Source of the DNA: Escherichia coli | GTDB lineage: Bacteria > Pseudomonadota > Gammaproteobacteria > Enterobacterales > Enterobacteriaceae | Reading direction: 5' to 3' (one strand) | DNA length: 64,000 bases | Assembly: GCF_030013205.1 (NCBI RefSeq) | Contig: NZ_CP122648.1 | Part shown: in pieces, positions 26,357 through 53,349 of the stretch | How the letters are laid out: each line of letters begins with the position of its first letter | How positions within the stretch are numbered: position 1 is the first letter of the stretch | Notes under the pieces: generated by a model | The model's input: only the letters and a program-made list of their open reading frames with translations | Database searches by the model: none | What the model was told of the DNA's origin: nothing | Translations under genes and position numbers: made by a program

Positions 26357-26367
26357 GGTGACGGTAT
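26357..26367 (+). repeat. candidate integrase arm-type site (copy 1)
   Basis: GGTGACGGTAT, repeated at 55280-55290 near the other prophage end. GGTAC submotifs lie nearby at both ends. Confidence 0.35.
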
Positions 26368-26381
26368 TACCTTAAAGGTAT
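26367..26381. promoter_or_regulatory. phage palindrome site A (TTACC-TTAAA-GGTAT), upstream of int
   Basis: One mismatch to TTACC-N5-GGTAA. The right half overlaps the -10-like TATACT, 42 nt before the int start. Confidence 0.55.
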
Positions 26382-26423
26382 ACTCTCATACCGTCATGAA
26401 AATGGTTTCTATACGGGTGAATT

Positions 26424-27674
26424 GTGCTTACCGATACAAAATTAAAAAACCTCAAGCCGCAGGACAAACTGTACAAGGTCTCCGATCGTGACGGGCTGTA
26501 TGTAGCTGTGCTTACGTCAGGCACGGTCTCATTTCGTTATGACTACCGTATCAACGGTCGCCGCGAAACACTGGTAATCGGGCAGTATGGGCGTGACGGT
26601 ATCAGCCTGGCAGAAGCGCGGGAAGAACTGATTGCTGCAAAGAAGCTGCTTAAAGCAGGCCAGTCACCGGCTGCGGCTAAACGTGACGGTATCAAAAAGA
26701 TTCGTGGTGCCGAAACGTTTGCGGTACATACCGACAGTTATATGAAACACGTCATCCTGGCTGAAAGTACCCGCGCAATGAAGCAGGCAGTGATCGACCG
26801 TGACATACTTCCGGTTCTTGGCAACAAAATGATGGCTGAAATTACCACATCGATGGTTCGTGATTTGTGTGACCGGATTGTCGAACGCGGTGGCCGGGCA
26901 ACAGCAGTGCAGGCCAGGGAGATCATCAGCAGCGTATACCGTCACGCCAATGACCGTGGTCATGGTTTGTTTAATCCTGCGGCTGACATTAAGCCTTCGT
27001 CTATCGCCATATTTAAACCACGAGAGCGAACACTGACACCAGAAGAAATTGGCCTGTTCTTCCGCACGTTGGATGCCATTGGTGCTATGGGCACTATGAA
27101 AATGGCTTTAAAACTGGTGCTTATCACTATGGTTCGTAAGGGCGAATTCACCAATGCAACGTGGGATGAAATAGATTTTAAAAAATGGACATGGACAATT
27201 CCTTCAGACCGCATGAAGGGAAGCCGGGCGCATGTTATTTACCTGCCTAAACAGGCTCAGGATATATTGGTCGGGTTGCAGATGTGCGCTGGTGGAAGTG
27301 AATATCTGGTTCCTGGTCGTTACAATTTCCGGAAGCCATTATCTAATGCCGCGCTGAACTCTCTGATCGACAGAACGGTGAAAATAATAAATGAAGATGG
27401 TGAGCATATTCAGGATTTCACCGTACACGATATGCGCCGTACAGCCAGTACGTTGTTGCATGAGGCTGGTTATCCTTCAGACTGGATTGAAAAGGCTCTG
27501 GCACATGAGCAGAAAGGTGTGCGCGCCGTATATAACAAAGCGGAATACGCCAGACAGCGCGCCTACATGTTGCAGCAGTGGGCCGATATGATTGATTCCT
27601 GGATTAACGGGGAGCATACGGATCTGATTCCGTTCTCCCCGTCGAAGTTTGAGAAGTGGATGGCGGGGGAATAA
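26424..27674 (+). CDS. int: tyrosine integrase (P4-type, DUF4102 N-terminal arm-binding domain)
   Basis: 416 aa with a GTG start. N-terminus LTDTKLKNLKPQDKLYKVSDRDGLYV. Catalytic region HDMRRTASTLL...LAHE...VYNKAEY. Adjacent to attL. Confidence 0.92.
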   Translation: MLTDTKLKNLKPQDKLYKVSDRDGLYVAVLTSGTVSFRYDYRINGRRETLVIGQYGRDGISLAEAREELIAAKKLLKAGQSPAAAKRDGIKKIRGAETFAVHTDSYMKHVILAESTRAMKQAVIDRDILPVLGNKMMAEITTSMVRDLCDRIVERGGRATAVQAREIISSVYRHANDRGHGLFNPAADIKPSSIAIFKPRERTLTPEEIGLFFRTLDAIGAMGTMKMALKLVLITMVRKGEFTNATWDEIDFKKWTWTIPSDRMKGSRAHVIYLPKQAQDILVGLQMCAGGSEYLVPGRYNFRKPLSNAALNSLIDRTVKIINEDGEHIQDFTVHDMRRTASTLLHEAGYPSDWIEKALAHEQKGVRAVYNKAEYARQRAYMLQQWADMIDSWINGEHTDLIPFSPSKFEKWMAGE

Positions 27675-27677
27675 CGT

Positions 27678-27872
27678 TTAATTATTCTGCTGATTTTCTT
27701 CCATCTCGGCTTCTGCTGCCAGTGATTCAATTTTATCTGTGAATATTGCTGACAGTGTTGCAAATTCAGCATCAGTGACAGCGGGAATTGGAACAAACCT
27801 GATCCCGCTGTGTGCAAGCATGTTTGCAGTTTCAAGGCATTTCCTTAAATCTGATGGTGATGCCCTGTTCAT
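27678..27872 (-). CDS. small phage protein, unknown function
   Basis: Start placed at ATG 27872 (MNRASPSDLRKCLETANMLAHSGIRF...), which overlaps the methylase stop as ATGA (translational coupling). 64 aa with an acidic C-terminus. Confidence 0.6.
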   Translation of the reverse strand: MNRASPSDLRKCLETANMLAHSGIRFVPIPAVTDAEFATLSAIFTDKIESLAAEAEMEENQQNN

Positions 27873-28531
27873 GCTGCACGCTCCCGCCCCTGGTTGTCTG
27901 TTGGTGACAGCGGAGCATTGCTGAATGCATTTGTTAATCTGGCAATATCCAACGCGTATCCAGGGTGTAGTTGCACTGCCGGGTCTTCGCACTGATTACC
28001 CCAAACATCGAAACCATGAGACGACTGGCGGGCGAACAGTTCAATGCGAGAAACATCGCCTAACAATTGCACAAGTTTTTCACGAACGATATCTGGTTTT
28101 CTTGAATGCTCAAGCCGCGGTGCGGTAAATGACTGAACGATCCCTGCATTAATGCGCGTAGGTAGTTTTCCCTTTACTGCAAACAGGCAATCTTCACTAT
28201 TGGCGCGAGTCATGTGACCCATACCCATAACCAGTTTATCTGGTTGTCGACTACCACATTTTATCCACGTGAATCCCTTCATGGTCATCAGACGGAATCC
28301 CCAGGCCTCAACAACTTTTAGTGCTTCGAGTGGTTGTGTTGGCACCCACCACATGGCCAACAGACAGTTTTCATCGGCCAAATCCCACACAGGAAGGCGG
28401 CAGATATCCAGCACACTCATAACCGGATATTTAAAACCGGCACCGCGATTACCATCTGCGGCTTTGTCCCGGTATACCCAGGGTGGATCTGCATAGATTA
28501 GTGTGTATTTCTTAGTCATAAACCACCCCAC
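27869..28531 (-). CDS. MT-A70 family DNA N6-adenine methyltransferase (no cognate endonuclease visible)
   Basis: 220 aa with the catalytic motif IYADPPWVY and MT-A70-like blocks (LLAMWW, EAWGF, FTWIK). Confidence 0.8.
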   Translation of the reverse strand: MGWFMTKKYTLIYADPPWVYRDKAADGNRGAGFKYPVMSVLDICRLPVWDLADENCLLAMWWVPTQPLEALKVVEAWGFRLMTMKGFTWIKCGSRQPDKLVMGMGHMTRANSEDCLFAVKGKLPTRINAGIVQSFTAPRLEHSRKPDIVREKLVQLLGDVSRIELFARQSSHGFDVWGNQCEDPAVQLHPGYALDIARLTNAFSNAPLSPTDNQGRERAA

Positions 28532-28811
28532 AACATCCTATGCCGCTATAGTCGCCACGGCGAAGGCCGTTACCTTTTGTGATACATTGGTCCCTGCGAA
28601 CCGCGATCCTTGCACGCTCAACATCACCAGAAGCAACATCCATACACTGAAGCCAAAGGTGAGCGGCAATGCGGAACTGCCCTTTTTTCTCTCTTTCAAT
28701 CGCGCGTTTTTCGATCTCTATCGCCGCAGGAGTAACGGCGACAATCTTTGACGGACTGCGCATTGAAACCTTGTTCATGTGATATTTTTCAAGTCGGCTT
28801 AACTTTCTCAC
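28512..28811 (-). CDS. PerC/Pch-like transcriptional activator family protein
   Basis: 99 aa with an uncertain GTG start. Core AIEREKKGQFRIAAHLWLQCM...ERARIAVRRDQCI resembles the PerC pattern (LExxGxxRRAAxxW...C). Confidence 0.5.
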   Translation of the reverse strand: MRKLSRLEKYHMNKVSMRSPSKIVAVTPAAIEIEKRAIEREKKGQFRIAAHLWLQCMDVASGDVERARIAVRRDQCITKGNGLRRGDYSGIGCCGVVYD

Positions 28812-28920
28812 TTAATCCAACCCTCTCTGAAAATTAATGCCAGCAGATAAAGCCATGCTGAAACAGAGGCCAGGAATAAGTACCATCCTGACCATTTGCT
28901 CCAGTGCCTTAGCAGCACAC

Positions 28921-29169
28921 TCATGCCGCGTTGCTCACGGGACGATATACACGTTGCTGAACAGGAGGTTTTTTACCCTGGAACTCTGCCGGGCTTGCTG
29001 CCTGACGTTCATCAAGCCAACGCTCAACTTCATCACGGTTCCATGCGCAGCGTTTATCGGTGATATACCAGCGTTTAGGAAATTCCCCTGCGCGCTCCAT
29101 ACGGTCGATAGTGCTCCATGACAGTGGAACCACCGCCAGGAGTTCCTTCTTACCTAATGCACCTTTCAT
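28921..29169 (-). CDS. AlpA-family HTH protein, likely excisionase/regulator
   Basis: 82 aa. LSWSTIDRMERAGEFPKRWYITDKRCAWNRDEVERWL matches the AlpA/Xis-type winged HTH. Confidence 0.75.
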   Translation of the reverse strand: MKGALGKKELLAVVPLSWSTIDRMERAGEFPKRWYITDKRCAWNRDEVERWLDERQAASPAEFQGKKPPVQQRVYRPVSNAA

Positions 29170-29218
29170 AAATACCTCTCTTGGTTGCAGTGCGGCGCGC
29201 GTGGCGCCGCGGTGGTGG

Positions 29219-30160
29219 TTACATAGATGTTTCGTTTAATTCTTCCCGACGAACGCTGTAAACGTCGGTGGCTTTTGCCAGCAGTTCGTCATCATCTGAA
29301 AGTTTTTGTGCAATGTATTTGTAAGCCTTATCCAGTTCGGAGACAGTGCTGTAATTCATCGCTGCGCTGGTAAAGGCCATCAGCATTTCTTCTGGATCAC
29401 GGCTGTCCGATTTACGCGTTTGCTCATCAGGCTTTTTCGCTGGTTTAGCGTTGATCAGACTGTTCATTCCCGCAGCAGTGGTCGTTTGCGGAGTAATGTC
29501 TCGCTCAACGCGCGGTGCCGTTTCCTGTAATTCGTCTGGGGTGTAGACGCCCATGATTACGTCAGGACAGTGCAGGCGAGACCAGCGTTTTGTCGCAAGG
29601 TATGCGAGTTGTTGTTTCGGATCACTGGCCCAAAGTGTGGAGTTTCTTACCTGTGCTTGAGACAGCATTAACTCAAGCACTCGAGGTTGATCCTCGCCCT
29701 TCATGGTTGCCCATACGCGAACACCGCAGCCTTCTTCGTCTTTTAGAGTCCAGCCTGGTGCGATATATGGATTGCCGTTTTTGGATGTTTTCTCAACAAA
29801 CTTACCGATCACGCGTTCCCACGGCCCGAACCACTCGTAGTTGATGCGATCTTTTGTTGGCGACATCGTTGAGATAACTGCGTTTACTAATTGGGCTTCA
29901 TAACCTAGCGTGCCGTTCACAACATGGGTTTTCTGAGCCACGGCAAACGGGTTCATTCCCCACTGCGCAGCCTGCATTGCCACGGCCATGCAATCAGCTG
30001 GTTTCCCGGCGAGGTGCGCCGGTACCGTTACGCGGCTTTGCGCCATTACCTCGGCGAATTTCATCAGTTGGTTCAAGCCGTCTGGGCTGAAAATAGTTGC
30101 AGCAGTTCCAGCGATTGCTGTGTCTACTGGTGCGTTGATGTTTGCGATGTCGTTGCTCAT
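29219..30160 (-). CDS. RecT-family single-strand annealing protein
   Basis: Start at ATG 30160 (MSNDIANIN), overlapping the upstream stop as ATGA. RecT-like core ...WGMNPFAVAQKTHVVNGTLGYEAQL... Confidence 0.8.
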   Translation of the reverse strand: MSNDIANINAPVDTAIAGTAATIFSPDGLNQLMKFAEVMAQSRVTVPAHLAGKPADCMAVAMQAAQWGMNPFAVAQKTHVVNGTLGYEAQLVNAVISTMSPTKDRINYEWFGPWERVIGKFVEKTSKNGNPYIAPGWTLKDEEGCGVRVWATMKGEDQPRVLELMLSQAQVRNSTLWASDPKQQLAYLATKRWSRLHCPDVIMGVYTPDELQETAPRVERDITPQTTTAAGMNSLINAKPAKKPDEQTRKSDSRDPEEMLMAFTSAAMNYSTVSELDKAYKYIAQKLSDDDELLAKATDVYSVRREELNETSM

Positions 30161-30978
30161 ATGTACATATCCTGTTTGCGTGCCCACTCAGGGCGTTTAA
30201 TGATTTCCACACCGCCCCATTCATCATTGATGCGGCATTCGTGATAGGTATTCAGATCCCGGCGGAACAGAGCGTGCCCGGCATCGACATCCTGCGCATC
30301 CAGCTCGAACACGCGTACCGGATACCGACCACAATCAATGCTTTCGCTCACGGCAAGAAAGAAAAAACCATGCGGCTGACCAGTAACCCTCATTGCGCCT
30401 TCGCGGTACATTGCGTCCTGCACGTGGTAGCGGAATTCCTCGATGTGGCGTGCAAAACGGTCCATATCTGCAACCTTTTTCACGTCGACGATCACGTTGT
30501 GCTCGTTCAGCCATTTGTCTGGACGAATTCGGCACAACTCCCCCGTCTCTTCATCGTTCCAGTACATTGATGCTTCGCAGTAACCAGGTGCTTCCAGCAT
30601 CCAGCGTGCCGCCGGGTGAGCCATTGCGCTATCACGCATCAGCTCCAGTTTCCGCCACTGCTCGGCATCAAGTACCGTAATCCCCATATCCGCCACATCA
30701 CGAAGAAATTCCTCTTCGTCAGCTTTACCTTGTTTCGTCCGACGATCGAATTTCGGTGAAACAATGAAGCGTTTGTCGAACTCTCCAGGCTCCAGAAGCA
30801 GACAGTGCAATGCGGTTCCCATATCCAGTGCAGACTTTTTCTCTTCGTCTTCTGGTGCTGCCTGAACCCATTTAAGAAGCGCCGGATTCTTGGCAACCAT
30901 GTCCAGTTGCGACTTACTCACGCCGTCACCGGCGTGGTAGTCTTCGTTGCTGATGTCGAAATAAATTCCCGGTTTCAT
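30157..30978 (-). CDS. PD-(D/E)XK exonuclease (RecE-like, DUF3799-type)
   Basis: 273 aa. N-terminus GIYFDISNEDYHAGDGVSKSQL and nuclease motif IVDVKK. Paired with RecT. Confidence 0.75.
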   Translation of the reverse strand: MKPGIYFDISNEDYHAGDGVSKSQLDMVAKNPALLKWVQAAPEDEEKKSALDMGTALHCLLLEPGEFDKRFIVSPKFDRRTKQGKADEEEFLRDVADMGITVLDAEQWRKLELMRDSAMAHPAARWMLEAPGYCEASMYWNDEETGELCRIRPDKWLNEHNVIVDVKKVADMDRFARHIEEFRYHVQDAMYREGAMRVTGQPHGFFFLAVSESIDCGRYPVRVFELDAQDVDAGHALFRRDLNTYHECRINDEWGGVEIIKRPEWARKQDMYI

Positions 30979-31274
30979 GCCGCGTCCCTCTGCCCATCAA
31001 GCTGATCAGCCAGATCCCAGCGGGCGATAATTGCCATTGCCTCGCGCCGGTAGGCATCCATTAGTTCTTCGAACTCAGGGCTGTCTTTAGCGGCCTCCAG
31101 TACTTCCTGGCGAACGCCTTTAACTGTTACAACGTCGAAAGTTGATGCCAGTTGATGAAGCCGGATACTCTCAATCAGTTCAACTTGTCGGTCATATAGC
31201 TGTTCTGACAGACGGTAGTCCTTGTCGAATGCCAGCATGATTTTTTGAAGATTTTTCTGCTGATTAACGTTCAT
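30975..31274 (-). CDS. hypothetical early protein
   Basis: ORF with its start placed at ATG 31274 (MNVNQQKNLQ...). Its stop overlaps the exonuclease start. Confidence 0.55.
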   Translation of the reverse strand: MNVNQQKNLQKIMLAFDKDYRLSEQLYDRQVELIESIRLHQLASTFDVVTVKGVRQEVLEAAKDSPEFEELMDAYRREAMAIIARWDLADQLDGQRDAA

Positions 31275-31276
31275 TA

Positions 31277-31429: not shown

Positions 31430-31448
31430 AACTTGTTACCTCGGTCTG

Positions 31449-31463
31449 TTACCGTTGAGGTAA
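31449..31463. promoter_or_regulatory. phage palindrome site B (TTACC-GTTGA-GGTAA), leftward early promoter
   Basis: Perfect half-sites, 19 nt upstream of the 31429 start. The -10-like AATTAT abuts it on the upstream side. Confidence 0.65.
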
Positions 31464-31510
31464 TAATTATGCGTATATGGTTTGATGTCAATAGATATGA
31501 GTTAAAAAAA

Positions 31511-31525
31511 TTACCCGTTAGGTAA
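31511..31525. promoter_or_regulatory. phage palindrome site C (TTACC-CGTTA-GGTAA)
   Basis: Perfect half-sites, located between the repressor-gene terminator and site B. Confidence 0.6.
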
Positions 31526-32167: not shown

Positions 32168-32222
32168 TTTCTGGAAAATCGCCTCATATATGAATCAGTA
32201 GATGATTCAATTTAAAGCAATA

Positions 32223-32237
32223 TTACCCAACAGGTAA
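32223..32237. promoter_or_regulatory. phage palindrome site D (TTACC-CAACA-GGTAA)
   Basis: Perfect half-sites in the repressor/cro intergenic region. On the repressor strand GGTAATATT supplies the -10-like TAATAT. Confidence 0.65.
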
Positions 32238-32239: not shown

Positions 32240-32254
32240 GCACCTCATAGGTAA
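32240..32254. promoter_or_regulatory. phage palindrome site D' (GCACC-TCATA-GGTAA)
   Basis: Degenerate left half (2 mismatches), 2 nt from site D. Confidence 0.45.
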
Positions 32255-32270
32255 CTATCCTTGATTTTTG

Positions 32271-32285
32271 TTACCTTATGGGTGA
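32271..32285. promoter_or_regulatory. phage palindrome site E (TTACC-TTATG-GGTGA), overlaps rightward promoter
   Basis: One mismatch. It overlaps a candidate promoter with -35 TTGTTA (32268-32273), a 17-nt spacer and -10 TATTAT (32291-32296), ahead of the cro-like ATG at 32322. Confidence 0.6.
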
Positions 32286-32321
32286 ATATTTATTATCTGA
32301 AATAAATATCAGGCAATAGCT

Positions 32322-32607: not shown

Positions 32608-32622
32608 GTACCTCAAAGGTAA
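32608..32622. promoter_or_regulatory. phage palindrome site F (GTACC-TCAAA-GGTAA)
   Basis: One mismatch, 11 nt after the terminator and upstream of the replication-module genes. Confidence 0.55.
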
Positions 32623-32702
32623 TAAATAACCAAATCTGGTTGATCTTTTTTTTGTGTCAGCACAAAATGACCGTAATCCCAATACTAATAACAGGGCTTA
32701 CC

Positions 32703-32918: not shown

Positions 32919-33752
32919 ATGAGCAGACATGCAACAGATTGGGCCTGGGAGACAGATCCAGGTAGCTCGTCATTAAAGCTCATACTGCTCTCGATGGCTG
33001 ACAGAGCCGATGAATATAACCTCTGCTACCCCAGCATAGAACGCCTCGTTAAAGACACTTGCCTGAATAAAAAAACCGTGCAGGCCGGGCTTATATCGCT
33101 CATGAAAATGGGGCTTATTTCAGATACCGGAGAGAGAAAGGGAGCGACGAAAAGAGTGCGGGTTTTCTCTCTTAATATAACCAAAAACGGGAACATTAAA
33201 GGCAACCGGGAAGGGGGTAATGGACCCGAAAACGGTAATGTTACCGAAAACGGTAATGTTACCGAAAACGGGAATATACCCAAAAACGGGATGTTGAATG
33301 ATCCCAAAAACGGGATGTTGAATGATCCCAAAAACGGGATCCAGAACCAGTCATATAACCAGTCATTTAACCAAGAGAGGGAGAGCAGGACAAAAAGCGG
33401 GGATTCTGTGCCTCATGACCCCGGCGCAAACAACGCCGTGATGAATAACTTTGTTCCTCCTGGTGGGCCAGGGCAATTAGGCAAATTTGTCATGCATGAA
33501 CAATGGCAGCCATCAGATGACTTTCTTCGGAAAAGCTCATTGCAGGGGATCTACCTGGACAGTCTGCCAACGGCACAGGAACTTGCAGAGTTCAGAATTT
33601 ACTGGATGGCTGAGGGTAAGGCATACCATCAGGCACAGTGGGAGCAGAAGCTGGCAAGGCGGCTGCAGATTAGCAGACAGAAGCAATCAACATTACCTGA
33701 TAACAACGTTCCGCACTGGAACAGCCCTGAAGCATGGGAGGATTTCTTGTGA
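32919..33752 (+). CDS. replication initiator (winged-HTH N-terminus, DnaT-like C-terminus; lambda O analogue)
   Basis: 277 aa. N-terminus LKLILLSMADRADEYNLCYPSIERLVKDTCLNKKTVQAGLISL. The C-terminus WQPSDDF...EFRIYWMAEGKAYHQAQWEQKLARRLQ is DnaT-domain like. The central Asn/Gly repeats are encoded by iterons. Followed by a lambda P-like gene. Confidence 0.75.
   Translation: MSRHATDWAWETDPGSSSLKLILLSMADRADEYNLCYPSIERLVKDTCLNKKTVQAGLISLMKMGLISDTGERKGATKRVRVFSLNITKNGNIKGNREGGNGPENGNVTENGNVTENGNIPKNGMLNDPKNGMLNDPKNGIQNQSYNQSFNQERESRTKSGDSVPHDPGANNAVMNNFVPPGGPGQLGKFVMHEQWQPSDDFLRKSSLQGIYLDSLPTAQELAEFRIYWMAEGKAYHQAQWEQKLARRLQISRQKQSTLPDNNVPHWNSPEAWEDFL
33181..33345 (+). repeat. iteron array (candidate origin of replication) inside the initiator gene
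   Basis: Seven AAAACGG cores at 33184, 33229, 33247, 33265, 33283, 33307 and 33331 (spacings 45, 18, 18, 18, 24, 24). Two 24-bp units CAAAAACGGGATGTTGAATGATCC are identical. Confidence 0.75.
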
Positions 33753-34571: not shown

Positions 34572-34586
34572 TTACCCATCGGGTAA
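34572..34586. promoter_or_regulatory. phage palindrome site G (TTACC-CATCG-GGTAA)
   Basis: Perfect half-sites. The -10-like AATAAT abuts the left half. Confidence 0.6.
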
Positions 34587-34633
34587 CAAAACATTCTAAA
34601 CTCTATTGATTTCGTGTCTTATGTGGTTTTTAA

Positions 34634-34648
34634 TTACCTTAGAGGTAA
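34634..34648. promoter_or_regulatory. phage palindrome site H (TTACC-TTAGA-GGTAA)
   Basis: Perfect half-sites, 3 nt before ATG 34652, so the site contains the Shine-Dalgarno AGAGG. The upstream candidate promoter is TTGATT-17-TTTAAT, whose -10 overlaps the left flank. Confidence 0.65.
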
Positions 34649-36407: not shown

Positions 36408-36718
36408 TGGTAGGAGACATAATTTTTAAAGGCCTTTGGGCGTGTAAACCGGAAACATCAGGGAATAACACCAACAAATGGTATTACGGAAATACTGATA
36501 CAACTTTTGAGCCATTAAACCCTTTACCTGACTACTGCAATAATCCATCGGATGCATGGCCTATTATTGTTGATAATAAAATCAGTCTAACCTGCCACCA
36601 CTCTCGCGGTGAGTGGTCAGCAGTTTTTAATGCCGACAACATTTGCTTTCATGCGAATAATCCACTCCGAGCCGCCATGATTGTATTTCTCATGATGCAG
36701 GAAAATCAGAATGGCTAA
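36314..36718 (+). CDS. NinX/DUF2591-like phage protein
   Basis: MMDYSQLSDFEINR... N-terminus, present twice because of the duplication. An alternative start is 36365. ...NPSDAWPIIVDNKISL...NPLRAAMIVFLMMQE. Confidence 0.6.
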   Translation: MMDYSQLSDFEINRRGEMMDYSQLSDFEINRMVGDIIFKGLWACKPETSGNNTNKWYYGNTDTTFEPLNPLPDYCNNPSDAWPIIVDNKISLTCHHSRGEWSAVFNADNICFHANNPLRAAMIVFLMMQENQNG

Positions 36719-37115
36719 ATCAGCAGCAGAGCGCAAAGCCGCTCAGAGAGCCAGACAAGCTGCATCTGGCGTGCGTAAGCTGGAAATTGTGCTTGATGCT
36801 CAGGAAATTGAAATGCTGGAGCGTAACTGTGCCACGCGTCGCCCCGGGCGTGCGCCTTACGAATTTGGTGAGTATATAGCGTTACTGATCCGCCAGGATG
36901 ATGCACGCGTGCGCGGGCGTATAAAATCGATCAGCAGAAAACGTTGCGGTAAGTGCGGCGAGATAGTTCCTGTGAATTCATGCCCGTGTACCGTACCCAT
37001 TACAAATGGGACAACGGACTTGCTCTGCGTGACTGGCGTTATGTTGTTCGCATTGCAAACATCGATGTCAGCAATCTTTCAGAACCTTCCTCTGCCGCAA
37101 ATATTGCGAAGTTGA
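36711..37115 (+). pseudogene. early-region gene (MAKSAAERKAAQRARQA... family) running into head-gene remnant DNA
   Basis: The first ~85 codons look like a normal small phage protein ending in a Cys cluster (CGKCGE...CPC). The rest is read out of frame across DNA that encodes a capsid-like C-terminus in another frame. Confidence 0.4.
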
Positions 37116-37333
37116 TGGTTAAAGCACTGCATCGCATTCCAAATCGTGGCATGGGTCGCCCGGTGTTCTACATGAACCGCACTGTAGGCCAGGCTCTTGA
37201 TCTGCAATCTCTGGAGAAAACATCTCTGGCGATCAGCGTAAAAGAGACAGAAGGCGAGTGGTGGACTTCATTCCGTGGTGTACCAATCCGTGAAACTGAT
37301 GCGCTTCTGGAAACAGAAGCCCGCGTGGTGTAA
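36953..37333 (+). pseudogene. major capsid protein, C-terminal remnant
   Basis: The frame is closed by TAA at 36950-36952 and has only a GTG. The translation ...RYVVRIANIDVSNL...MGRPVFYMNRTVGQALDLQ...FRGVPIRETDALLETEARVV looks like the last ~115 aa of a capsid protein. No N-terminal part, portal or terminase lies upstream. Confidence 0.45.
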
Positions 37334-37384
37334 CGCCTGTTATTAACCTGTGGGTCGTAACAGACCCACTAATGGAGAAAGAAG

Positions 37385-37753
37385 ATGATCACCGACAAAC
37401 TGTTGATGTTCTCCGAAGCTCAGGCGGTTACGAATACCGCGGCTTCTACTGACGTAATCGATCTCGGTCCAATTGACGGAAAACGTCGTGATATCGGCGT
37501 GGGTTACCCGCTTGAGTTTTGGGCGCTGGTTAACACAGCCGCCGCGGCAAGCGGTGATGCAACTGTAAACATCCAGTTGCAGGCGAGTGAGAATAACAGC
37601 TCATGGACCACTATTTATGATAGTGGCGCACTGGCAAAGACCGCCCTGACAGCAGGTAAACGAGTTGTTTCTGCAAAGGTGCCTGCCGGTGTTCAGCGAT
37701 ATCTGCGTGTTAACTACTCCGTCGCAACTGGCCCACCGGGACAATTACGTTAA
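37385..37753 (+). CDS. capsid decoration/cement-like protein, possibly 3'-truncated
   Basis: 122 aa. MITDKLLMFSEAQAVTNTAASTDVIDLG...YLRVNYSVATGP resembles Bbp16/epsilon15 gp10-type cement proteins as I recall them. The C-terminus ends abruptly just before another junction. Confidence 0.4.
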   Translation: MITDKLLMFSEAQAVTNTAASTDVIDLGPIDGKRRDIGVGYPLEFWALVNTAAAASGDATVNIQLQASENNSSWTTIYDSGALAKTALTAGKRVVSAKVPAGVQRYLRVNYSVATGPPGQLR

Positions 37754-37794
37754 CGGCAAGCGCCTCTATTTTTGGCGCGGAGCAGGTAGGCAAA

Positions 37795-38391
37795 TTGTTC
37801 TATCTGGAACAGCCTGCAGTGGATTCTGTGCCGGTAACCAGCAATACCGCTGTAGTGGTTCGTGCCAACAGGAACGTCCCGCCATCCCTCAGGAATACGG
37901 CCACCACGAACTGGCAGATGGCGCGCCGGACATTTGGAGGCCTGTCTCATCTTGAAGGCCAGACCGTAAACATTCTCTCTGATGCGAGCGTGGAACCACA
38001 GAAAGTGGTTTCCGGAGGTGCCGTCACGCTGGAATCTCCGGGGGCTGTAGTGCACATCGGCCTGCCAATAACTGCTGAATTCGAAACACTGGATATCAAC
38101 ATTAACGGACAGGAAACGCTGCTGGACAAAAAACAGGTGATCCCCTCCGTTACTCTGGTTGTGAATGCCAGTCGCGGCATCTGGGCGACTACGCCTGGCG
38201 GTAAATGGTACGAATATCCACAGCGTGAATTCGAGTTCTACGATGATCCTGTTGATGATGCTACCGGAAAAGTAGAAGTGAAACTGGACAGTAACTGGGG
38301 CAAAAACGGACGTGTAAAAATCCGTCAGCTTGATCCGTTGCCGCTGTCTGTTCTTGCCGTTATTCCTCGCCTTACTGTTGGGGGATTTTGA
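37795..38391 (+). pseudogene. virion/tail protein, C-terminal remnant
   Basis: The frame opens only at 37714, with no ATG (a TTG at 37795) and no Shine-Dalgarno. The translated ...GGLSHLEGQTVNILSDASV...GLPITAEFETLDI... looks like an internal-to-C-terminal part of a larger structural protein. Confidence 0.4.
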
Positions 38392-47124: not shown

Positions 47125-47990
47125 TATTCTTTTTTGCTATTTCTTTGATATATATTTCTTCCATTTTTGGTAACACGAATAACGTGCCCCCTGGATTCTA
47201 CTTTGTTATTTGTTGCTTTATATACTTCAAAATCAAACCATGATATATAACTTATTTCGTCAATAGACACCATGATCTCAAGTCCTGGCACTTTCTTTCT
47301 GCTAATTCCTCTTATTGCTGCAGTCCGCTTGACCTGTATTTCTCCTGGATAAGCATTAGTGAATGTGACAGATAAGTTGTCTTTGTTCCTGTATCCTGAC
47401 ATTAAAGGAACAAAAGATATGTGCTGATGCGGACCCTGATTTTCCGTTGGTTCACCAGAACCATTTATTATTCCAACATACACTTTGTTTGATGATAAAG
47501 TAATCAGCATTGGTCGTTTAGGATCCGATTCAATAGCATCAAGCAATAGTAAGTCTAAAGAACCTTGCGAGTAAGTTTTTCGCAGTACTCTGGCCTTCAT
47601 TGCCTCTGTTTTTTGCTCGTAAATATCACGTTTATAAAAACAACCAAGAAGAAAATCTTTCACCCACACAACAGACACATAACACAAAGAGAAGCAAATG
47701 GATGTGGCTGAGAGAAGAAGCAGCCACATGTAAATTCTATCTGTTTCTGGTTTTGATGTTACATTAAAAGTTTCCACCATATCGTGAACTAGGTGAAAAT
47801 CAGGCCATTTATATTTTATAGCGGCTGCAATTATTACTGATGCAACAAGGCAATATGTACCTAGTGCCGCTACTTTCATATAAAGAAGCTGGCCTTCGTG
47901 TCGGTATAAACGGAAATAATGATACTGGTTAGCGGTTATCATAATATAACCGCTAACCAGGATTGGGATAATTAGAAGAGCTAGCAACAC
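47124..47990 (-). CDS. membrane protein with ~170-aa C-terminal soluble domain, unknown function
   Basis: 288 aa with a GTG start preceded by AAGGAAG. Three or four N-terminal TM segments (LLALLIIPILVSGYIMI, VAALGTYCLVASVIIAAAI, IYMWLLLLSATSICFSLCYVSVVWV), then a soluble domain (...PMLITLSSNKVYVGIINGSGEP...SFVPLMSGYRNKD...). AT-rich. Confidence 0.7.
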   Translation of the reverse strand: MLLALLIIPILVSGYIMITANQYHYFRLYRHEGQLLYMKVAALGTYCLVASVIIAAAIKYKWPDFHLVHDMVETFNVTSKPETDRIYMWLLLLSATSICFSLCYVSVVWVKDFLLGCFYKRDIYEQKTEAMKARVLRKTYSQGSLDLLLLDAIESDPKRPMLITLSSNKVYVGIINGSGEPTENQGPHQHISFVPLMSGYRNKDNLSVTFTNAYPGEIQVKRTAAIRGISRKKVPGLEIMVSIDEISYISWFDFEVYKATNNKVESRGHVIRVTKNGRNIYQRNSKKE

Positions 47991-48199
47991 TACTTCCTTA
48001 CAGTGGCAAGATCCTGTTTAACAATTGCAGCAGCGAGACGACGCATCTCCTTAACCTCAGGAAGCTCAGAAATTTGCTGTGATGAGATATATACTCCACC
48101 ACGCTTGTTAACCTGCGCTGACGCCGGAACTTCTGCATTTTTTGCCTGAGGGCTGGGTGCATTATCCCTCGTTTTTGTACGAGCGAACCAAAATCCCAT
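47990..48199 (-). CDS. 69-aa protein, unknown function (first gene of the two-gene operon)
   Basis: ATG with a GGAGGA Shine-Dalgarno. Its stop TAG overlaps the GTG of the 288-aa gene (TAGTG). Confidence 0.6.
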   Translation of the reverse strand: MGFWFARTKTRDNAPSPQAKNAEVPASAQVNKRGGVYISSQQISELPEVKEMRRLAAAIVKQDLATVRK

Positions 48200-48225: not shown

Positions 48226-48240
48226 TTACCTTTAAGGTAA
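48226..48240. promoter_or_regulatory. phage palindrome site I (TTACC-TTTAA-GGTAA)
   Basis: Perfect half-sites, 27 nt upstream of the 48199 start. On the gene strand the -10-like TAATAT abuts the site (TAATATTACC). Confidence 0.65.
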
Positions 48241-48298: not shown

Positions 48299-48306
48299 GC
48301 CGCTCG

Positions 48307-48999
48307 TCAGAAGAACCCTGCCTTGTCGTTGATGTACTCCGCGTGCGTCTGGATATCACGCAGGCATTTGCTCACACCGACGATGTAGCAGAACATGGTG
48401 GTCAACTCCGCCGCCGCGCCCGATACGTCGTGCCCGTCTTCCTGTAACTGGTTCAGCAGATTCATCAGCAGTGAGTTCTCCGTCAGGCCGAGAACACCAG
48501 ACGGAGAATGAATCAGGCTGCGGTAGCCGGGCTTCAGCGGGGCACTGTAGGTTTTGTTCTCTATCTTCATTGCCTGCATCACTGCTGATGCTGTGGCGTT
48601 GGCTACCTGGTCGGCAACCATCTTTATGCGTTCTTCCTGCGGGAGCGAGTTTTTAATGTAACTTCCGGTGCGGCGGATCTGAGGAAGAACCTCACCTGTA
48701 ACCCATTCAAGAAATCTGAATGCTCTCGTTCCCTCAGTCATTGCCTCTTTGCAACGCAGAATAAGGATGTAGAGACCTGATTCTGAAACGATGGATAGTT
48801 CTTGTATTCCACCAGGGGTCTGTATTGAATACAGCCCCTTTTTGTTCCAGCCTTTTTTATCAAGTTTTCTCGCTTGTGTAACATCAATATTCAAAGCATT
48901 GCACACATCTTTGGTGACAAACCAAGGTTCTCCGTCAATCATGAACATACGGATCTGGCAGGATGACTCAAAGGAAAAGATGGAAGGTTTGGTATTCAT
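48307..48999 (-). CDS. BRO-N domain protein (antirepressor-like) with uncharacterised C-terminal domain
   Basis: Start placed at ATG 48999 (MNTKPSIFSFESSCQIRMFMIDGEPWFVTKDVCNALNI...), 230 aa. The N-terminus is a typical Bro-N/KilA-N-type DNA-binding domain. The C-terminal 72 aa are paralogous to the 85-aa ORF at 50145-50402. Confidence 0.75.
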   Translation of the reverse strand: MNTKPSIFSFESSCQIRMFMIDGEPWFVTKDVCNALNIDVTQARKLDKKGWNKKGLYSIQTPGGIQELSIVSESGLYILILRCKEAMTEGTRAFRFLEWVTGEVLPQIRRTGSYIKNSLPQEERIKMVADQVANATASAVMQAMKIENKTYSAPLKPGYRSLIHSPSGVLGLTENSLLMNLLNQLQEDGHDVSGAAAELTTMFCYIVGVSKCLRDIQTHAEYINDKAGFF

Positions 49000-49149
49000 G
49001 GCGATCACCTTTGTAGTTAGGTTAATCACCACCGCTGAGACCAATCAGATGGTGGTGAACTGTGCAGAGTTGGTCTTACCGGCTACAAAGGAACCCGGCG
49101 CACCTTTCGGTGCCCCCACACAGCCCACCATAGAATAGGTGCGCTTTAC

Positions 49150-49262
49150 ACATAAAAAAACCGCTTATGCGGCATATGTGCCTCTGTAGTAATCCGGGAG
49201 ACCAATCCCGGCACTGGATTTTGCCAGTGCCCGATTACTATGGCACAAGAGGAGTGCGATGT
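49150..49262 (-). promoter_or_regulatory. structured leader upstream of the BRO-N gene (three-way junction plus weak terminator)
   Basis: Outer stem 49187-49194 (TAGTAATC) pairs with 49233-49240 (GATTACTA) and encloses two abutting hairpins, CCGGGA-GACCAA-TCCCGG and CACTGG-ATTTTG-CCAGTG. On the minus strand this is followed by CCGC-ATAA-GCGG plus seven U (49154-49172). Confidence 0.4.
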
Positions 49263-49266
49263 AAAT

Positions 49267-49281
49267 TTACCGCAAAGGTAA
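49267..49281. promoter_or_regulatory. phage palindrome site J (TTACC-GCAAA-GGTAA)
   Basis: Perfect half-sites. On the minus strand the candidate promoter is TTGATT, 17-18 nt, TATCAT, with the -10 abutting the site (TATCATTACC). Confidence 0.6.
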
Positions 49282-49359
49282 TGATAAACGCGAAGAAATA
49301 TTAAAATCAACCGTATTTGGTTGATTGCGTTTAACGCTTGATCACCTGAAAGCAAGATA

Positions 49360-49374
49360 TTACCTTTAAGGTAA
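49360..49374. promoter_or_regulatory. phage palindrome site K (TTACC-TTTAA-GGTAA)
   Basis: Perfect half-sites, 20 nt upstream of ATG 49395. Confidence 0.6.
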
Positions 49375-49394
49375 TGTTATTGTGAGGAAAGGCA

Positions 49395-50123
49395 ATGGAA
49401 GTTTTCTGGGTAGTTGTTGGTGTGGTTGCGGTGATTATTTACGTTATCAACCAGAACAAGACTAAGATCTCTGATCGTACGGTCGTTAATCATAACAAAA
49501 CGATAAAGACTGAAGATGGGGAGATAACGATTAATCGTACACAGGTGATAGAACACACCTCCACTCAGTTTCAAAAAACGGGAGATAATGCGCCTAATAT
49601 TTCCGTACCTCCTGCTTATGATAGCGCGGTAATCCAGACATATTATAAACAGCAGGAGTTAGCAAAAGAGAGGCAACTGATTCAGCCAAAGCCGTTTACA
49701 GCTGAGCTTCCACCCGGAGTGTCAACGCGTCCGGCATATCATGGAAGATTCCCTGGTGATGACATATCGTCTCAGTCATCTAAAAAAGCACCTCAGGCAG
49801 TATCAGAGCCAGCAAGAATACCTTCTGTATCGCCGCCAAAAGAAGAATCAGCTAACAGAGTTTCAAGTGGTAGCAAGCAGTGCTTGCGATGCAGAATAAA
49901 CCTTCCATATGAAAAATTCAGGAAATCGTCAAAAAATCCAGATGGATTGACTAAGTGGTGTGCAAGGTGTCTCGATGGCCCAAAGAATACACGCCATATG
50001 AAGTGGTGCCCAATTTGTAATGTCCGCAGAAAACGAACTAGCTTTTACCCTAATAATCAAAATGCGGACGGCTTAATGGCATGGTGCAAAACGTGCTGGG
50101 ACGAGCACAAAGCGAAACGATAG
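49395..50123 (+). CDS. membrane-anchored protein with two C-terminal zinc-ribbon-like repeats
   Basis: 242 aa. N-terminal TM segment MEVFWVVVGVVAVIIYVI, a low-complexity linker, then two units CxxC-x(n)-DGLxxWCxxC (CLRC...DGLTKWCARC and CPIC...DGLMAWCKTC). Confidence 0.65.
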   Translation: MEVFWVVVGVVAVIIYVINQNKTKISDRTVVNHNKTIKTEDGEITINRTQVIEHTSTQFQKTGDNAPNISVPPAYDSAVIQTYYKQQELAKERQLIQPKPFTAELPPGVSTRPAYHGRFPGDDISSQSSKKAPQAVSEPARIPSVSPPKEESANRVSSGSKQCLRCRINLPYEKFRKSSKNPDGLTKWCARCLDGPKNTRHMKWCPICNVRRKRTSFYPNNQNADGLMAWCKTCWDEHKAKR

Positions 50124-50146
50124 GCCGCTAGAGCGGCCTTTTCTTT
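50122..50146. terminator. bidirectional terminator between convergent genes
   Basis: AGGCCGC-TAGA-GCGGCCT followed by TTTTCTTTAT. Confidence 0.75.
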
Positions 50147-50402
50147 ATGTGGTTTGTTTTCGTAATTGTTCGGCACAATAGTCGAGATGTGTTTGCAGAT
50201 CCTGCATAGACATCTGTGAGCTGGTGACGTAGTTAATCAGTGCAGTCAGTTCGGCAAGTGGGCCATCGACATTAAATCCATCCTTATCGAGATCCCGGAG
50301 TAATTTCATCAAGTGCGATCCCTCCACCAGTGATCTGACGCCTCCCGGCGTGTGAATCCTTTCGGTAAATCCGTCTTCCAGTGGATAGTGATACTGCTGC
50401 AT
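50145..50402 (-). CDS. 85-aa protein paralogous to the BRO-N protein C-terminal domain; candidate SOS-controlled antirepressor
   Basis: Start placed at ATG 50402 with a GGAGAA Shine-Dalgarno. 31 of 72 residues are identical to the BRO protein C-terminus in an ungapped hand alignment. A LexA box lies about 20 nt upstream. Confidence 0.65.
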   Translation of the reverse strand: MQQYHYPLEDGFTERIHTPGGVRSLVEGSHLMKLLRDLDKDGFNVDGPLAELTALINYVTSSQMSMQDLQTHLDYCAEQLRKQTT

Positions 50403-50421
50403 CTTATCTTCTCCATGCAAT

Positions 50422-50441
50422 AACTGTATATTTATACAGTA
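50422..50441. promoter_or_regulatory. LexA (SOS) box
   Basis: AACTGTATATTTATACAGTA compared with the consensus TACTG(TA)5CAGTA. CTGT-N8-ACAG is intact, and ACTGTATA-TT-TATACAGT is a perfect dyad. Confidence 0.75.
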
Positions 50442-50478
50442 TCAAATAATTTGTTTGCTATCCAGCACGTTTTGCAAA

Positions 50479-50493
50479 TTACCCGAAAGGTAA
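50479..50493. promoter_or_regulatory. phage palindrome site L (TTACC-CGAAA-GGTAA)
   Basis: Perfect half-sites in the divergent region between the 85-aa gene and the tailspike gene. GGTAATATC provides the -10-like TAATAT toward the tailspike. Confidence 0.6.
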
Positions 50494-50597
50494 TATCTAT
50501 TCGTATTCACAGTCTTTCTATCCATATGTGGTTTTTCAGGTAATAGAATAACCAGATATGCGGCGCAACGGGTGCTGCGACTATCTGGAGATTTAAC

Positions 50598-52967
50598 ATG
50601 ACGGTCTCAACCGAAGTTGACCACAACGAATACACAGGTAACGGCGTTACGACATCATTTCCGTATACCTTCCGTATTTTCAAAAAATCCGACTTGGTTG
50701 TTCAGGTGGTTGACCTTGATGAAAATATTGCTGTGCTGGCTCTTGATACTGATTACACAGTAACTGGTGCGGGAGGGTACAACGGCGGTAATGTAATTCT
50801 GTCGAAGGCGTTGGCTAACGGTTATCAGATTTCTATATCACGAGACCTCCCGGTTACGCAGGAAACTGATTTGCGTAATCAGGGTAAGTTCTTTGCAGAA
50901 GTGCATGAGGATGCGCTTGATAAGCTAACGATGCTGATTCAGCAGGTTCGAAGCTGGTTCCGGCTGGCGTTGTGTAAGCCATCCAGTATAGCGAATTGGT
51001 ATGACGCACTTAATAACTATATTCGTAATCTGAAAGACCCACGCGACCCTCATGATGCAGCTACAAAAAACTATGTAGATACCATTGTATTCTCTAACCT
51101 TAGCCGAACTCTCCGAGTTCCTGAGCCAATAAATCAGTTACCTCCAGCAGCAGTTCGGCGGAATATGATGCCAGCATTTGATAATGATGGTAATGCGATT
51201 GTTGTTATTCCTCCATCTGGGTCAGCATCTGATGTGCTTATTCAGTTAGCAAGTTCTTCCGATGGAAAGGGGGATGCTTTAGTTGCAGTTAAACAACCTT
51301 ATGCTAATTCTGTAACTATTACTCAACATCAGCACAACACCTATCTTCTTACCCCTTACCACTTCGGAGCAAAGGGAGATGGTATTGCAGATGACACTCT
51401 TGCCCTAAACCGCTGGTCCAATTGCGGAGCTAAGGTACTCTATTGGCCAGCAGGAAAATATCTGGTGAGCCCTACAAATGGTGTTTCTCTGGATATGGAT
51501 AACTACCATACAGGGGATTCCGCACTGACGGCGTGCGTAACCGTTCCCTATGGCGTGAAAATTTATACGGCTGGGACAGAAACCCAGTTATGCGTGAAGG
51601 ATGCTGACTCAGCATCGACCGTAGGTCTGGCCGTTAGCTACCCGGAGTCAAGTTATTCCCAGGGAGAAACCGACATCGGAAAATTCATGATTCGCCTGGA
51701 AAACGGAAATGGTCGGTACGGTATTCTTACTCCACTCAGGGAGGAAATGTTCACTGCGCACCGGGCGAAGTTCAAATTAGGAGCGCATTTCGGTCCTCAA
51801 CAGGGGCGTGATGACCTGACGGTGCTACAGTATTCGTGGGTAAATGGCATGCTGATTGGCGACGCTTTTAGCGGCTCAGTGCATGTCACTGGATACGGCA
51901 GCTATAACGTGCAGCAGGTTGAAGGTACGCAATTCCAGTGCGTGGCCGTTAAGATGAAGTCCGTTCGAGGTAACGTAGGTGTAGACATCAGATTCAACAC
52001 AAACAACTGGTGGAAGTTTGTCGAACTGAGTGACGGCGTTGAAGGGTTTGTTGTCAAGGACAGCGAAGGGCTTGGGGCATTTGTTGGAATCGACCTAACC
52101 AACCCAGCCAGCGAGCCAGGTGGATTTATCGATAACGTACACGTCAACGTTAAGCAAAACGGAGTACGAGCCAGAAACAGGCCATCCCTGCAAATCGGAA
52201 ACATTGAAGTCTATAAAAGTGATGGATTTGCCACTGACCTTGTTTACGATGCGGTGCTTCTGGTTGACTGCCAGGAAGTGACTATCAACTCTATTCACGC
52301 AATCGTCGGCAACTCAATCACAAATGCTCAGTCAGTAGTTAACTCGACAAACAGCACATTCCGCCTGAACTCATACTTTGCGCAAAACATCAGGTTCGTC
52401 GATTTTGTGGTTAATAGCCCTGACTGCTATGTCGGAGAGGGGACAATTAACCAGGTCGAGGCAGTTCACTCACTTTCTGGATCACAAAGCAACGACTTCC
52501 ACGGTAGTGATGTTCTGGTTAGATCCTACAGAAACAACGTTCGCCCACTTTACGCAGTGATGGATTCCGCTTTCAACAGGGCAAGGGCGAGGTTTCCACA
52601 AAATACAAGCCTCCAGGTGAGAACCTTTCTCGACTACACTGTGGCAGCAGCTGGGACTTTAACAATAGAACCAAGGCTTGACCCCTCCAGGTACTACATC
52701 ATCATGAGTGCTGGTACAGGTGCCTTCACCTATTCAATTGAGCTGGATAAAGTGTCTGCCGTAGTTGGTGATATTGTTTACATAAAGATAGCCGGGTCAT
52801 CATCTGCTAACCCAACAGTTTTGGTTAAAAATGGTATTGGTGGGACAACGCTCAGCACATTCAATAATATCGGTCCGATTCGTTTGAATTGTGCTTACAG
52901 ATTTAATGAGTCAGGTAACTGGGTGGCCTACTACATTACCCAAAGCGTTGAAACCACTTATGGCTAA
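50598..52967 (+). CDS. tailspike (epsilon15-type N-terminal adaptor domain, beta-helix depolymerase body)
   Basis: 789 aa. N-terminus MTVSTEVDHNEYTGNGVTTSFPYTFRIFKKSDLVVQVVD matches my recollection of the epsilon15 gp20-type head-binding domain. The FGAKGDGIADDTLALNRW motif is typical of pectate-lyase-fold tailspikes. Confidence 0.8.
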   Translation: MTVSTEVDHNEYTGNGVTTSFPYTFRIFKKSDLVVQVVDLDENIAVLALDTDYTVTGAGGYNGGNVILSKALANGYQISISRDLPVTQETDLRNQGKFFAEVHEDALDKLTMLIQQVRSWFRLALCKPSSIANWYDALNNYIRNLKDPRDPHDAATKNYVDTIVFSNLSRTLRVPEPINQLPPAAVRRNMMPAFDNDGNAIVVIPPSGSASDVLIQLASSSDGKGDALVAVKQPYANSVTITQHQHNTYLLTPYHFGAKGDGIADDTLALNRWSNCGAKVLYWPAGKYLVSPTNGVSLDMDNYHTGDSALTACVTVPYGVKIYTAGTETQLCVKDADSASTVGLAVSYPESSYSQGETDIGKFMIRLENGNGRYGILTPLREEMFTAHRAKFKLGAHFGPQQGRDDLTVLQYSWVNGMLIGDAFSGSVHVTGYGSYNVQQVEGTQFQCVAVKMKSVRGNVGVDIRFNTNNWWKFVELSDGVEGFVVKDSEGLGAFVGIDLTNPASEPGGFIDNVHVNVKQNGVRARNRPSLQIGNIEVYKSDGFATDLVYDAVLLVDCQEVTINSIHAIVGNSITNAQSVVNSTNSTFRLNSYFAQNIRFVDFVVNSPDCYVGEGTINQVEAVHSLSGSQSNDFHGSDVLVRSYRNNVRPLYAVMDSAFNRARARFPQNTSLQVRTFLDYTVAAAGTLTIEPRLDPSRYYIIMSAGTGAFTYSIELDKVSAVVGDIVYIKIAGSSSANPTVLVKNGIGGTTLSTFNNIGPIRLNCAYRFNESGNWVAYYITQSVETTYG

Positions 52968-53297
52968 TAGTCATTATTAATATCCTGCAGATGTGACCTA
53001 ACGACAAGCGTCGCCACGATGACAACTACGGAAAGGATGCCGATAACCCACCACATAACTTACCCGCGCAAAATGAATGGATAAAAATCATCCGCTGATT
53101 GATCCTAATCTTTGCATATTTTTCGAAGATGTTACGTTTAGTGGGGCGAAAAAAGCAATTACAGCAATGCCACCTATCGACGTAAGTCCGAAAAAGCCAG
53201 GCTCAGGTCTGCCGCTAATTGGGTATTGATGGCTTACAAGGACTACAAGTGATGCGATAAGCCTGATCACGTCAAAGCAATTATGTCTGTTATTCAT
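52964..53297 (-). pseudogene. O-antigen acyltransferase (acyltransferase-3 family) remnant with internal deletion
   Basis: The N-terminal ~50 aa MNNRHNCFDVIRLIASLVVLVSHQYPISG...GGIAVIAFF fit the FDxxRxxAxxxVxxxH...AVxxFF start of Oac-type acetylases, then the sequence becomes unrelated and stops. A separate 30-aa ORF (53056..52964, MWWVIGILSVVVIVATLVVRSHLQDINNDY) looks like the last TM helix. Confidence 0.5.
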
Positions 53298-53334
53298 ACA
53301 TCCATACTGTAGGAAATAGCGATACGAAACAATA

Positions 53335-53349
53335 TCACCTCACGGGTAA
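53335..53349. promoter_or_regulatory. phage palindrome site M (TCACC-TCACG-GGTAA)
   Basis: One mismatch. Located between the acyltransferase remnant and the lysis genes. Confidence 0.5.

Follow-up and report, generated by a model that had tools for sequence, protein, structure and literature searches.

We analyzed a 64-kb stretch of Escherichia coli DNA (contig NZ_CP122648.1; hereafter, the window) that contains a defective prophage of the phiV10/epsilon15-like genus Uetakevirus. Intergenic regions throughout this prophage carry a short palindrome, A-TTACC-N5-GGTAA-T, which we call the A site. The A site is most likely the immunity operator of the prophage, with a probability that we put at about 0.8, and would be read by paired N-terminal helix-turn-helix (HTH) domains of the repressor Rep. 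At the switch between rep and the neighboring cro-like gene, the Cro-like protein would probably also bind. The sites, their statistics and conservation, the geometry of the promoters and the homologies of Rep and its antirepressor are observations; the identity of the binder, the bridging of paired sites by a tetramer and the way in which the late units are kept off are inferences.

A first-pass annotation, made from the sequence alone, had reported 14 copies of the palindrome, nine of them perfect. Our exact scan of the window for TTACC-N5-GGTAA found the same nine at the same positions (Table 1), where 0.03 were expected, and none of 100 shuffled sequences reached nine. When up to one mismatch was allowed, there were 17 matches against 1.1 expected, and 13 of these belong to the annotated set. 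The last member of the set, at 32240, has two mismatches, but it lies 17 bp from the site O1, at the very place where the copies in epsilon15, SPC32H and Klebsiella phages are exact. The four one-mismatch matches outside the set, which are somewhat more than chance predicts, fall in host coding sequence (15706 and 20794), prophage coding sequence (46634) and host DNA (60344).

The sites are confined to intergenic DNA of the prophage, as had been claimed. According to the RefSeq annotation of ETEC4079, whose chromosome is identical, all 14 are intergenic, although such DNA makes up 9.3% of the prophage; for the nine exact sites alone, the chance of this is about 5e-10. An unbiased count of all palindromes of the form 5-N(0-12)-5 also ranked TTACC-N5 first in the prophage, with nine copies. 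The same count in 34.8 kb of host DNA found no palindrome with more than two copies, and no exact copy of TTACC-N5-GGTAA. The flanks extend the symmetry, also as proposed, since A is found at position -1 in 77 of 112 half-site views. The central base of the spacer is A or T in 110 of the 112.

Together, the 14 sites are spread over 27 kb of the window and stand at 12 transcription units: those of int, the leftward early genes, rep/cro, replication, DUF1064, the accessory unit at 48226, BRO-N, a gene for 242 amino acids (aa), ant/tailspike and lysis. Where the first-pass annotation had the motif marking almost every unit, we find a site at every unit of the prophage. Terminator-like hairpins lie between several of the units.

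The placement of the sites relative to promoters is also regular. At the leftward early promoter PL (TTGACA-17-AATTAT on the minus strand) and at the promoters of DUF1064, the 48226 unit and BRO-N, the last T of the -10 hexamer is the first T of TTACC, so that the predicted start site falls within the operator. The four abutting hexamers (AATTAT, TTTAAT, TAATAT and TATCAT) are those that had been listed earlier. At int, the mismatch in the A site yields a -10-like hexamer, TATACT. Three sites, O1, O2 and O3, sit between the starts of rep (32167) and of the cro-like gene (32322). The description of this arrangement as classical operator geometry is apt for the early and accessory promoters. It does not hold for the post-cro, tailspike and lysis promoters, where the site is well upstream of the -10.

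Spacing between sites is similarly constrained. Among successive exact sites in 13 genomes or loci, a distance of 62 bp occurs 20 times, 61 or 63 bp five times, 17 bp seven times, 76 bp four times, and 80 and 93 bp once each. We considered whether the repeats originated as duplicated promoter cassettes and rejected this idea, given that the flanks of the sites within one genome are unrelated.

The motif occurs genus-wide and at orthologous places. We scanned the phages phiV10, epsilon15, SPC32H, Tyrion, BUCT711 and Kp4865-1, and six prophage loci from Superficieibacter, Erwinia, Klebsiella, Citrobacter and Scandinavium. Each has 5-11 exact copies (10 in SPC32H), and the intact genomes have 15-18 sites each with at most one mismatch. 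At 12 orthologous positions compared across 4-6 genomes, the half-sites hardly vary: their mean pairwise mismatch over ten bases is 0.03, against 0.43 for the spacer and 0.37 for the outer flanks, and the ACC and GGT are constant at all of them. Unvarying arms around a free spacer point to sequence-specific recognition by a protein rather than to structure in the nucleic acid. Relatives also retain the spacings of 62, 17 and 30/31 bp. Even the weak sites stay weak: the int site reads GGTAT in all six genomes, and the lysis site reads TCACC in four of five.

The best candidate for the protein is Rep. Its residues 1-190 match the SPC32H Rep structure (PDB 5d50, E 4e-42). Pfam detects HTH_3 at residues 106-147 and a weak Cro-like HTH at 21-61, and finds no Peptidase_S24 in Rep. 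Across the genus, Rep proteins are 42-78% identical, and the candidate recognition helix NLVNRW is invariant. The Rep in the window is 42% identical to the epsilon15 repressor and is identical to that of phage ZX5, whose overexpression abolished free phage and lowered holin and endolysin transcripts by 99.97-99.99% (PMC9782041). According to papers that cite the SPC32H work, Rep binds palindromic sites as a tetramer, with DNA-binding domains contributed by different dimers. They assign DNA binding to the N-terminal domain, dimerization to the middle domain, and both tetramerization and Ant binding to the C-terminal domain. A 2023 paper states that the mechanism of repression by Rep "has not been extensively characterized". 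Moreover, the epsilon15 record (AY150271.2 / NC_004775.2) has seven protein_bind features labeled "repressor / lysogeny" that are exact TTACC-N5-GGTAA matches, including ones that precede the genes for terminase, portal and tailspike.

An antirepressor gene, ant, with a near-consensus LexA box just upstream is also present. A Rep that lacks S24 and an ant gene with a LexA box fit induction by antirepressor. The similarity of Ant to its SPC32H counterpart (88% identity) is high, though the repressors are only about 42% identical overall, the Ant-binding C-terminal part included.

These components suggest the following mechanism. By homology with SPC32H, Rep would be a tetramer whose two DNA-binding pairs grip two operators together. 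In the lysogen, Rep would occupy the start sites of int, PL, the rightward promoter PR, DUF1064, BRO-N and two accessory promoters, and would directly block initiation. The PL and DUF1064 promoters are each bracketed by two operators exactly 62 bp apart, which one tetramer could clamp together; the fixed distance, near six helical turns, would fit one tetramer on both sites of a pair. Each unit appears to end at a terminator and to restart with its own promoter and operator, so that silencing would proceed unit by unit, with no antitermination cascade. Upon induction, LexA-controlled Ant would dismantle the Rep tetramers and free all units together.

Several observations weigh against this reading, or against parts of it. 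A loop of 62 bp is tight, and the tetramer that bridges it is something we infer. The repressor features in the epsilon15 record may themselves be a prediction. Conservation does not discriminate between the two candidate binders, in that the phage collection has 35 Uetakevirus-like records with Rep, and the Cro-like protein is found in these same 35. The outliers, PseuP_224 from Pseudomonas (found with Rep) and pOW20-A from Psychrobacter (found with the Cro-like protein), each have a visibly related partner too. Because both recognition helices are invariant and the two proteins constantly co-occur, covariation cannot assign the site to one or the other. The genome collection was scanned with a pattern that contained NLVNRW, which limited the returns to that helix or to unrelated single genes. 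The lysis-region site of epsilon15 and phiV10 immediately precedes leftward conversion genes with known activity in lysogens; an adjoining site alone therefore does not make a gene silent. Lastly, the center of the site is about 55-70 bp upstream of the -10 in the post-cro, tailspike and lysis units, and 55-67 bp upstream when the portal unit of relatives is included; the distance to the start is 55-80 bp. Simple occlusion of RNA polymerase does not apply at such a position.

These promoters also contain a second motif. The palindrome had been presented as a single operator type wired to all of these promoters, but it is not the only element that they share: the late and post-cro promoter cores have in common CAWATNNGGTT (symmetric form AACCATATATGGTT), which we call the B element. 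Each Uetakevirus genome has 2-7 copies, against about 0.3 in shuffled sequences, and nearly all copies that we examined are in promoter regions beside A sites. In the cores of the portal, tailspike and lysis promoters, all without a -35 consensus, B lies at about -30 to -20. The distances between A and B centers fall into three groups, 19.5 bp (n=8), 40.5-43.5 bp (n=15) and 52.5 bp (n=8), which are near 2, 4 and 5 helical turns. By contrast, we found no uniform helical phase of the A sites relative to the late -10, the distances being 55, 58 and 67 bp. B could be a weaker Rep site (ACC-N6-GGT as against ACC-N5-GGT), a site for the Cro-like protein or a site for a 112-aa regulator (phrog_536; p55 in phiV10 and gp49 in epsilon15). 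The gene for this regulator is at the end of the early operon in relatives and is deleted in this prophage. We also asked whether a GGTAAT next to the late -10 could be the right arm of another A site, and rejected this by eye because the matching left arm is absent.

Another arrangement occurs in relatives, in the leader of the terminase genes. In epsilon15 (L007, 12-44), Tyrion (L008, 67-99) and ETEC4071 (L025, 11872-11904), the segment that directly joins the early-operon terminator to the first codon of the small terminase gene holds two adjacent operator copies, 18 bp apart. This pair leaves no room for a promoter, which suggests that it may act as a roadblock to read-through transcription.

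The location of some A sites motivates an alternative to direct repression, namely that the post-cro (32608), tailspike (50479), lysis (53335) and portal sites act from a distance, whether as the anchor of a tetramer that reaches to B, as a block to read-through or as the site of an upstream activator for promoters without a -35. We consider this a serious contender for these sites, if the less probable one. The A center is far upstream of the -10 in every genome, and the terminase-leader pair of epsilon15 and Tyrion is in a roadblock-like position. The grouping of A-B distances near whole helical turns fits this explanation, but the mere absence of indels in short, conserved modules could partly account for fixed distances. 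Similarly, B is found in the part of the promoter where a -35 consensus is lacking, but no protein is known to bind it, it differs from A by one bp of spacing, and it is merely half-symmetric at most late promoters.

A different possibility is that the palindrome is mainly bound by the 76-aa Cro-like protein or another lytic regulator, and that it organizes the lytic program and not lysogenic silencing. The genus-wide invariance of the Cro-like recognition helix is compatible with this idea, and in pOW20-A, which keeps a TACC-N5-GGTA core, the Cro-like helix (YINTHL) is nearer to that of the window than the CI helix is. However, sites that overlap the PL and PR start sites and lie beside the repressor gene are what a maintenance repressor predicts. 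The epsilon15 record names the repressor as the binder, overexpression of the repressor alone shuts off lysis transcripts (PMC9782041), and SPC32H Rep is described as a binder of palindromic sites. We therefore regard this possibility as improbable. Scarcely credible is a role as a host-factor site, as a methylation or restriction target of the MT-A70 methylase, or as an RNA hairpin or terminator, even though the palindrome is short and the phage encodes an adenine methyltransferase. The absence of exact copies from the flanking host DNA led us to reject a host factor, and the strictly intergenic sites have fixed positions relative to promoters. We rejected the hairpin or terminator interpretation on three grounds: weak hairpins (-3.3 to -4.6 kcal/mol), no T run at any of the four sites that we checked (32223, 34634, 48226 and 50479), and no compensatory changes in the arms.

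The interpretation of the A site as the Rep operator could be extended to include B. In this flat form of control, one tetrameric repressor would grip each promoter at two points, using two A sites 62 bp apart at early promoters and A plus B (2, 4 or 5 turns) at late ones. A single antirepressor would free all of them, and the repressor might also touch half-sites at 33216-33287, in the probable replication origin described below. We propose this extension tentatively, and think it rather unlikely to be correct as a whole.

Table 1 Features of the prophage, its A sites and B elements, and its regulators (positions in the window; matches are to TTACC-N5-GGTAA)
Feature	Positions	Strand	Match	Details
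Uetakevirus (phiV10/epsilon15-like) defective prophage	26217-55378			in 3' end of guaA
A site at int	26367-26381		one mismatch	TTACCTTAAAGGTAT; 43 bp before int start codon
PL start-site operator	31449-31463		exact	minus-strand -10 AATTAT ends at 31463, the last operator base
PL upstream operator	31511-31525		exact	62 bp from 31449; 19 nt upstream of -35 TTGACA (31491-31486, -)
Repressor Rep (WP_000836290.1), 194 aa	31583-32167	-		N-terminal HTH (helix NLVNRW), middle HTH_3-like domain, C-terminal domain
O1, rep/cro switch	32223-32237		exact
O2, rep/cro switch	32240-32254		two mismatches	GCACCTCATAGGTAA; orthologous site exact in epsilon15, SPC32H, Kp4865-1
O3, rep/cro switch	32271-32285		one mismatch	TTACCTTATGGGTGA; overlaps rightward promoter, TTGTTA-17-TATTAT (32268-32296) or TTGATT-17-GAATAT
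Cro-like protein (WP_001282459.1), 76 aa	32322-32552	+		helix TTSHYIQTHLTG, invariant across genus
Post-cro A site	32608-32622		one mismatch	GTACC..GGTAA; past cro terminator, upstream of replication operon; about 24 bp upstream of TTGATC -35
Post-cro B element	32628-32641			AACCAAATCTGGTT; 19.5 bp from center of A site 32608; overlaps -35
DUF1064 upstream operator	34572-34586		exact	62 bp from 34634; 19 nt upstream of -35
DUF1064 start-site operator	34634-34648		exact	-35 TTGATT 34606-34611, 17-bp gap, -10 TTTAAT 34629-34634
Leftward accessory unit operator	48226-48240		exact	unit starts with 69-aa gene 47990-48199; minus-strand TAATAT -10 abuts site
BRO-N promoter operator, leftward	49267-49281		exact	TTGATT-18-TATCAT, 49310 to 49281
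Operator ahead of rightward 242-aa gene	49360-49374		exact	gene at 49395-50123
Antirepressor Ant homolog, 85 aa	50145-50402	-		88% identical to SPC32H Ant
LexA box	50424-50439			CTGTATATTTATACAG, near-consensus; just upstream of ant
A site, ant/tailspike divergent region	50479-50493		exact	center about 58 bp upstream of tailspike TAGAAT
B element, tailspike core promoter	50520-50533			ATCCATATGTGGTT; 40.5 bp from A-site center
A site, head of lysis module	53335-53349		one mismatch	TCACC..GGTAA; about 57 bp upstream of TATTAT
B element, lysis promoter	53379-53392			ATTCATATATGGTT; 43.5 bp from A-site center
Further B copies	49309-49322, 50550-50563
Weaker B copies	31469-31482, 34615-34628

The prophage is bounded by a 17-bp attachment (att) core, ATTGAGTGGGAATGATT, at 26217 and 55362. 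The core sequence is the same as that reported for phage ZX5 (PMC9782041). Genes for the terminase, portal, protease, most of the capsid and the tail are gone. Pieces of capsid, Bbp16-like and tail genes, together with a truncated hypothetical gene, remain at 36711-38391 and mark the deletion, in which the operators of the late operon were also lost. The sibling strain ETEC4071 retains about 7.5 kb more, and is truncated as well. Outside the prophage, an IS1 element (56422-57119) adjoins truncated host genes downstream of attR, according to the RefSeq annotation of the matching chromosome, and a 2680-aa open reading frame (ORF) occupies 13479-21521, upstream of guaA.

The tailspike gene ends at 52967 and the lysis genes begin at 53454. 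The intervening segment at 52968-53334 (about 370 bp, from tailspike to the lysis operator) has no homolog in the phage collection. It includes a 69-aa ORF, possibly hydrophobic, at 53088-53297 on the minus strand, where relatives carry O-antigen conversion genes. The first-pass annotation placed an acyltransferase gene in this divergent region, but there is no such gene between the tailspike and lysis genes. We also rejected an acyltransferase remnant beside 53335, given that the 69-aa ORF is unrelated to phiV10 Oac and to epsilon15 gp22. Homology of the lysis region to other Uetakeviruses begins at the A site itself.

Two other repeated sequences are near the operators. An iteron-like array at 33171-33343, inside the DnaT-like replication gene (32919-33752), is built from direct repeats 18 and 24 bp long (GGTAATGTTACCGAAAAC and related units), and is probably the replication origin. 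The array reuses operator half-sites at other spacings, for example in GGTAA-TG-TTACC and, at 33241-33256, TTACC-N6-GGTAA. In addition, an inverted repeat, TGAATCA-N5-TGATTCA, occurs at 32191-32209 between the rep start codon and O1; epsilon15 has an annotated IHF site at the equivalent place.

The operator reading is not new: the epsilon15 annotation already contains it, and it belongs to the studied Rep-Ant system. A text search of the literature for the motif matched only unrelated papers. As far as could be checked, the additional details are the fixed 62-bp pairs, the classes of A-B spacing and the contrast with Q-bearing relatives. For a prophage family that is common in E. coli, Salmonella, Klebsiella and Enterobacter, the layout of the sites would imply silencing by an operator at each insulated unit, and not by a lambda-style cascade. 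This organization should help to predict which accessory genes are expressed in lysogens, among them antirepressors, conversion genes and tailspike-linked genes. It also offers a compact set of operators and repressor whose spacing rules are defined and which could be put to the test or used elsewhere. Although the prophage is defective, its repressor, operators and LexA-controlled ant look intact, so the prophage may still make its host immune and react to SOS signals.

Among known systems, the closest are the sites of epsilon15, which share the ATTACC-N5-GGTAAT motif, the genus and the repressor family. They also share positions, including three sites in the PL region, the unit after the replication genes, ant/tailspike, and the terminase and portal leaders. 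By contrast, the epsilon15 record lists seven of 15 sites, and leaves out the int and lysis sites as well as all three of the rep/cro switch. The accessory-island sites of the window (48226, 49267 and 49360) belong to genes that are absent from epsilon15. The Rep-Ant switch of SPC32H (PDB 5D50 and 5D4Z) has in common the full-length Rep homology, Ant, the LexA box and the palindrome, but the structural work concerns how Ant dismantles Rep tetramers.

The more distant relatives pOW20-A and PseuP_224 have annotated Q antiterminators and Cro-like partners. Judging by eye from the translations, their CI proteins combine a Rep-like N-terminal domain with long, S24-like C-terminal extensions (233 and 245 aa). 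Their half-sites form TACC-N5-GGTA in pOW20-A and TACC-N4-GGTA in PseuP_224, with four copies each, only at the left and right operators, OL and OR. We found no Q-type antiterminator in the prophage of the window, although no systematic search for one was made. Going by these sequences, the half-site is old and shared, and its spread to every unit is a Uetakevirus trait.

The lambda CI/Cro system is similar in having divergent rep and cro genes with three operators between them and more at PL, palindromic sites and multimeric binding that is probably cooperative. It differs in that the operators in the window are at 12 or more units and are not confined to OL and OR, in that Rep lacks S24 and in that induction would be by antirepressor. 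The statement of the first-pass annotation that the system is more distributed than the lambda paradigm is correct as regards the sites at 12 units. The idea is not novel, given the epsilon15 record and other repressors with dispersed operators.

The sites of P1 C1 and of L5 gp71 are asymmetric, and the stoperators of L5 are orientation-dependent and lie within transcribed regions. The site in the window is instead a perfect palindrome that lies at or upstream of promoters. Dispersed operator sites are also described in a paper on the repressor of mycobacteriophage L1 (PMC1934351), and many dispersed repressor sites in one on CB of the telomere phages N15 and PY54 (PMC4488713). Like the prophage studied here, P1 C1, L5/L1 gp71 and N15/PY54 CB use one maintenance repressor with many scattered operators at many separate units. 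Finally, a published comparison relates the C-terminal domain of SPC32H Rep to TetDloop, the tetramerization fold that drives DNA looping in pLS20 Rco. Paired operators at a fixed spacing fit the picture of looping tetramers such as pLS20 Rco and LacI, but the pairs in the window are 62 bp apart and bracket a single promoter, and looping by Rep would be an extrapolation from these cases.

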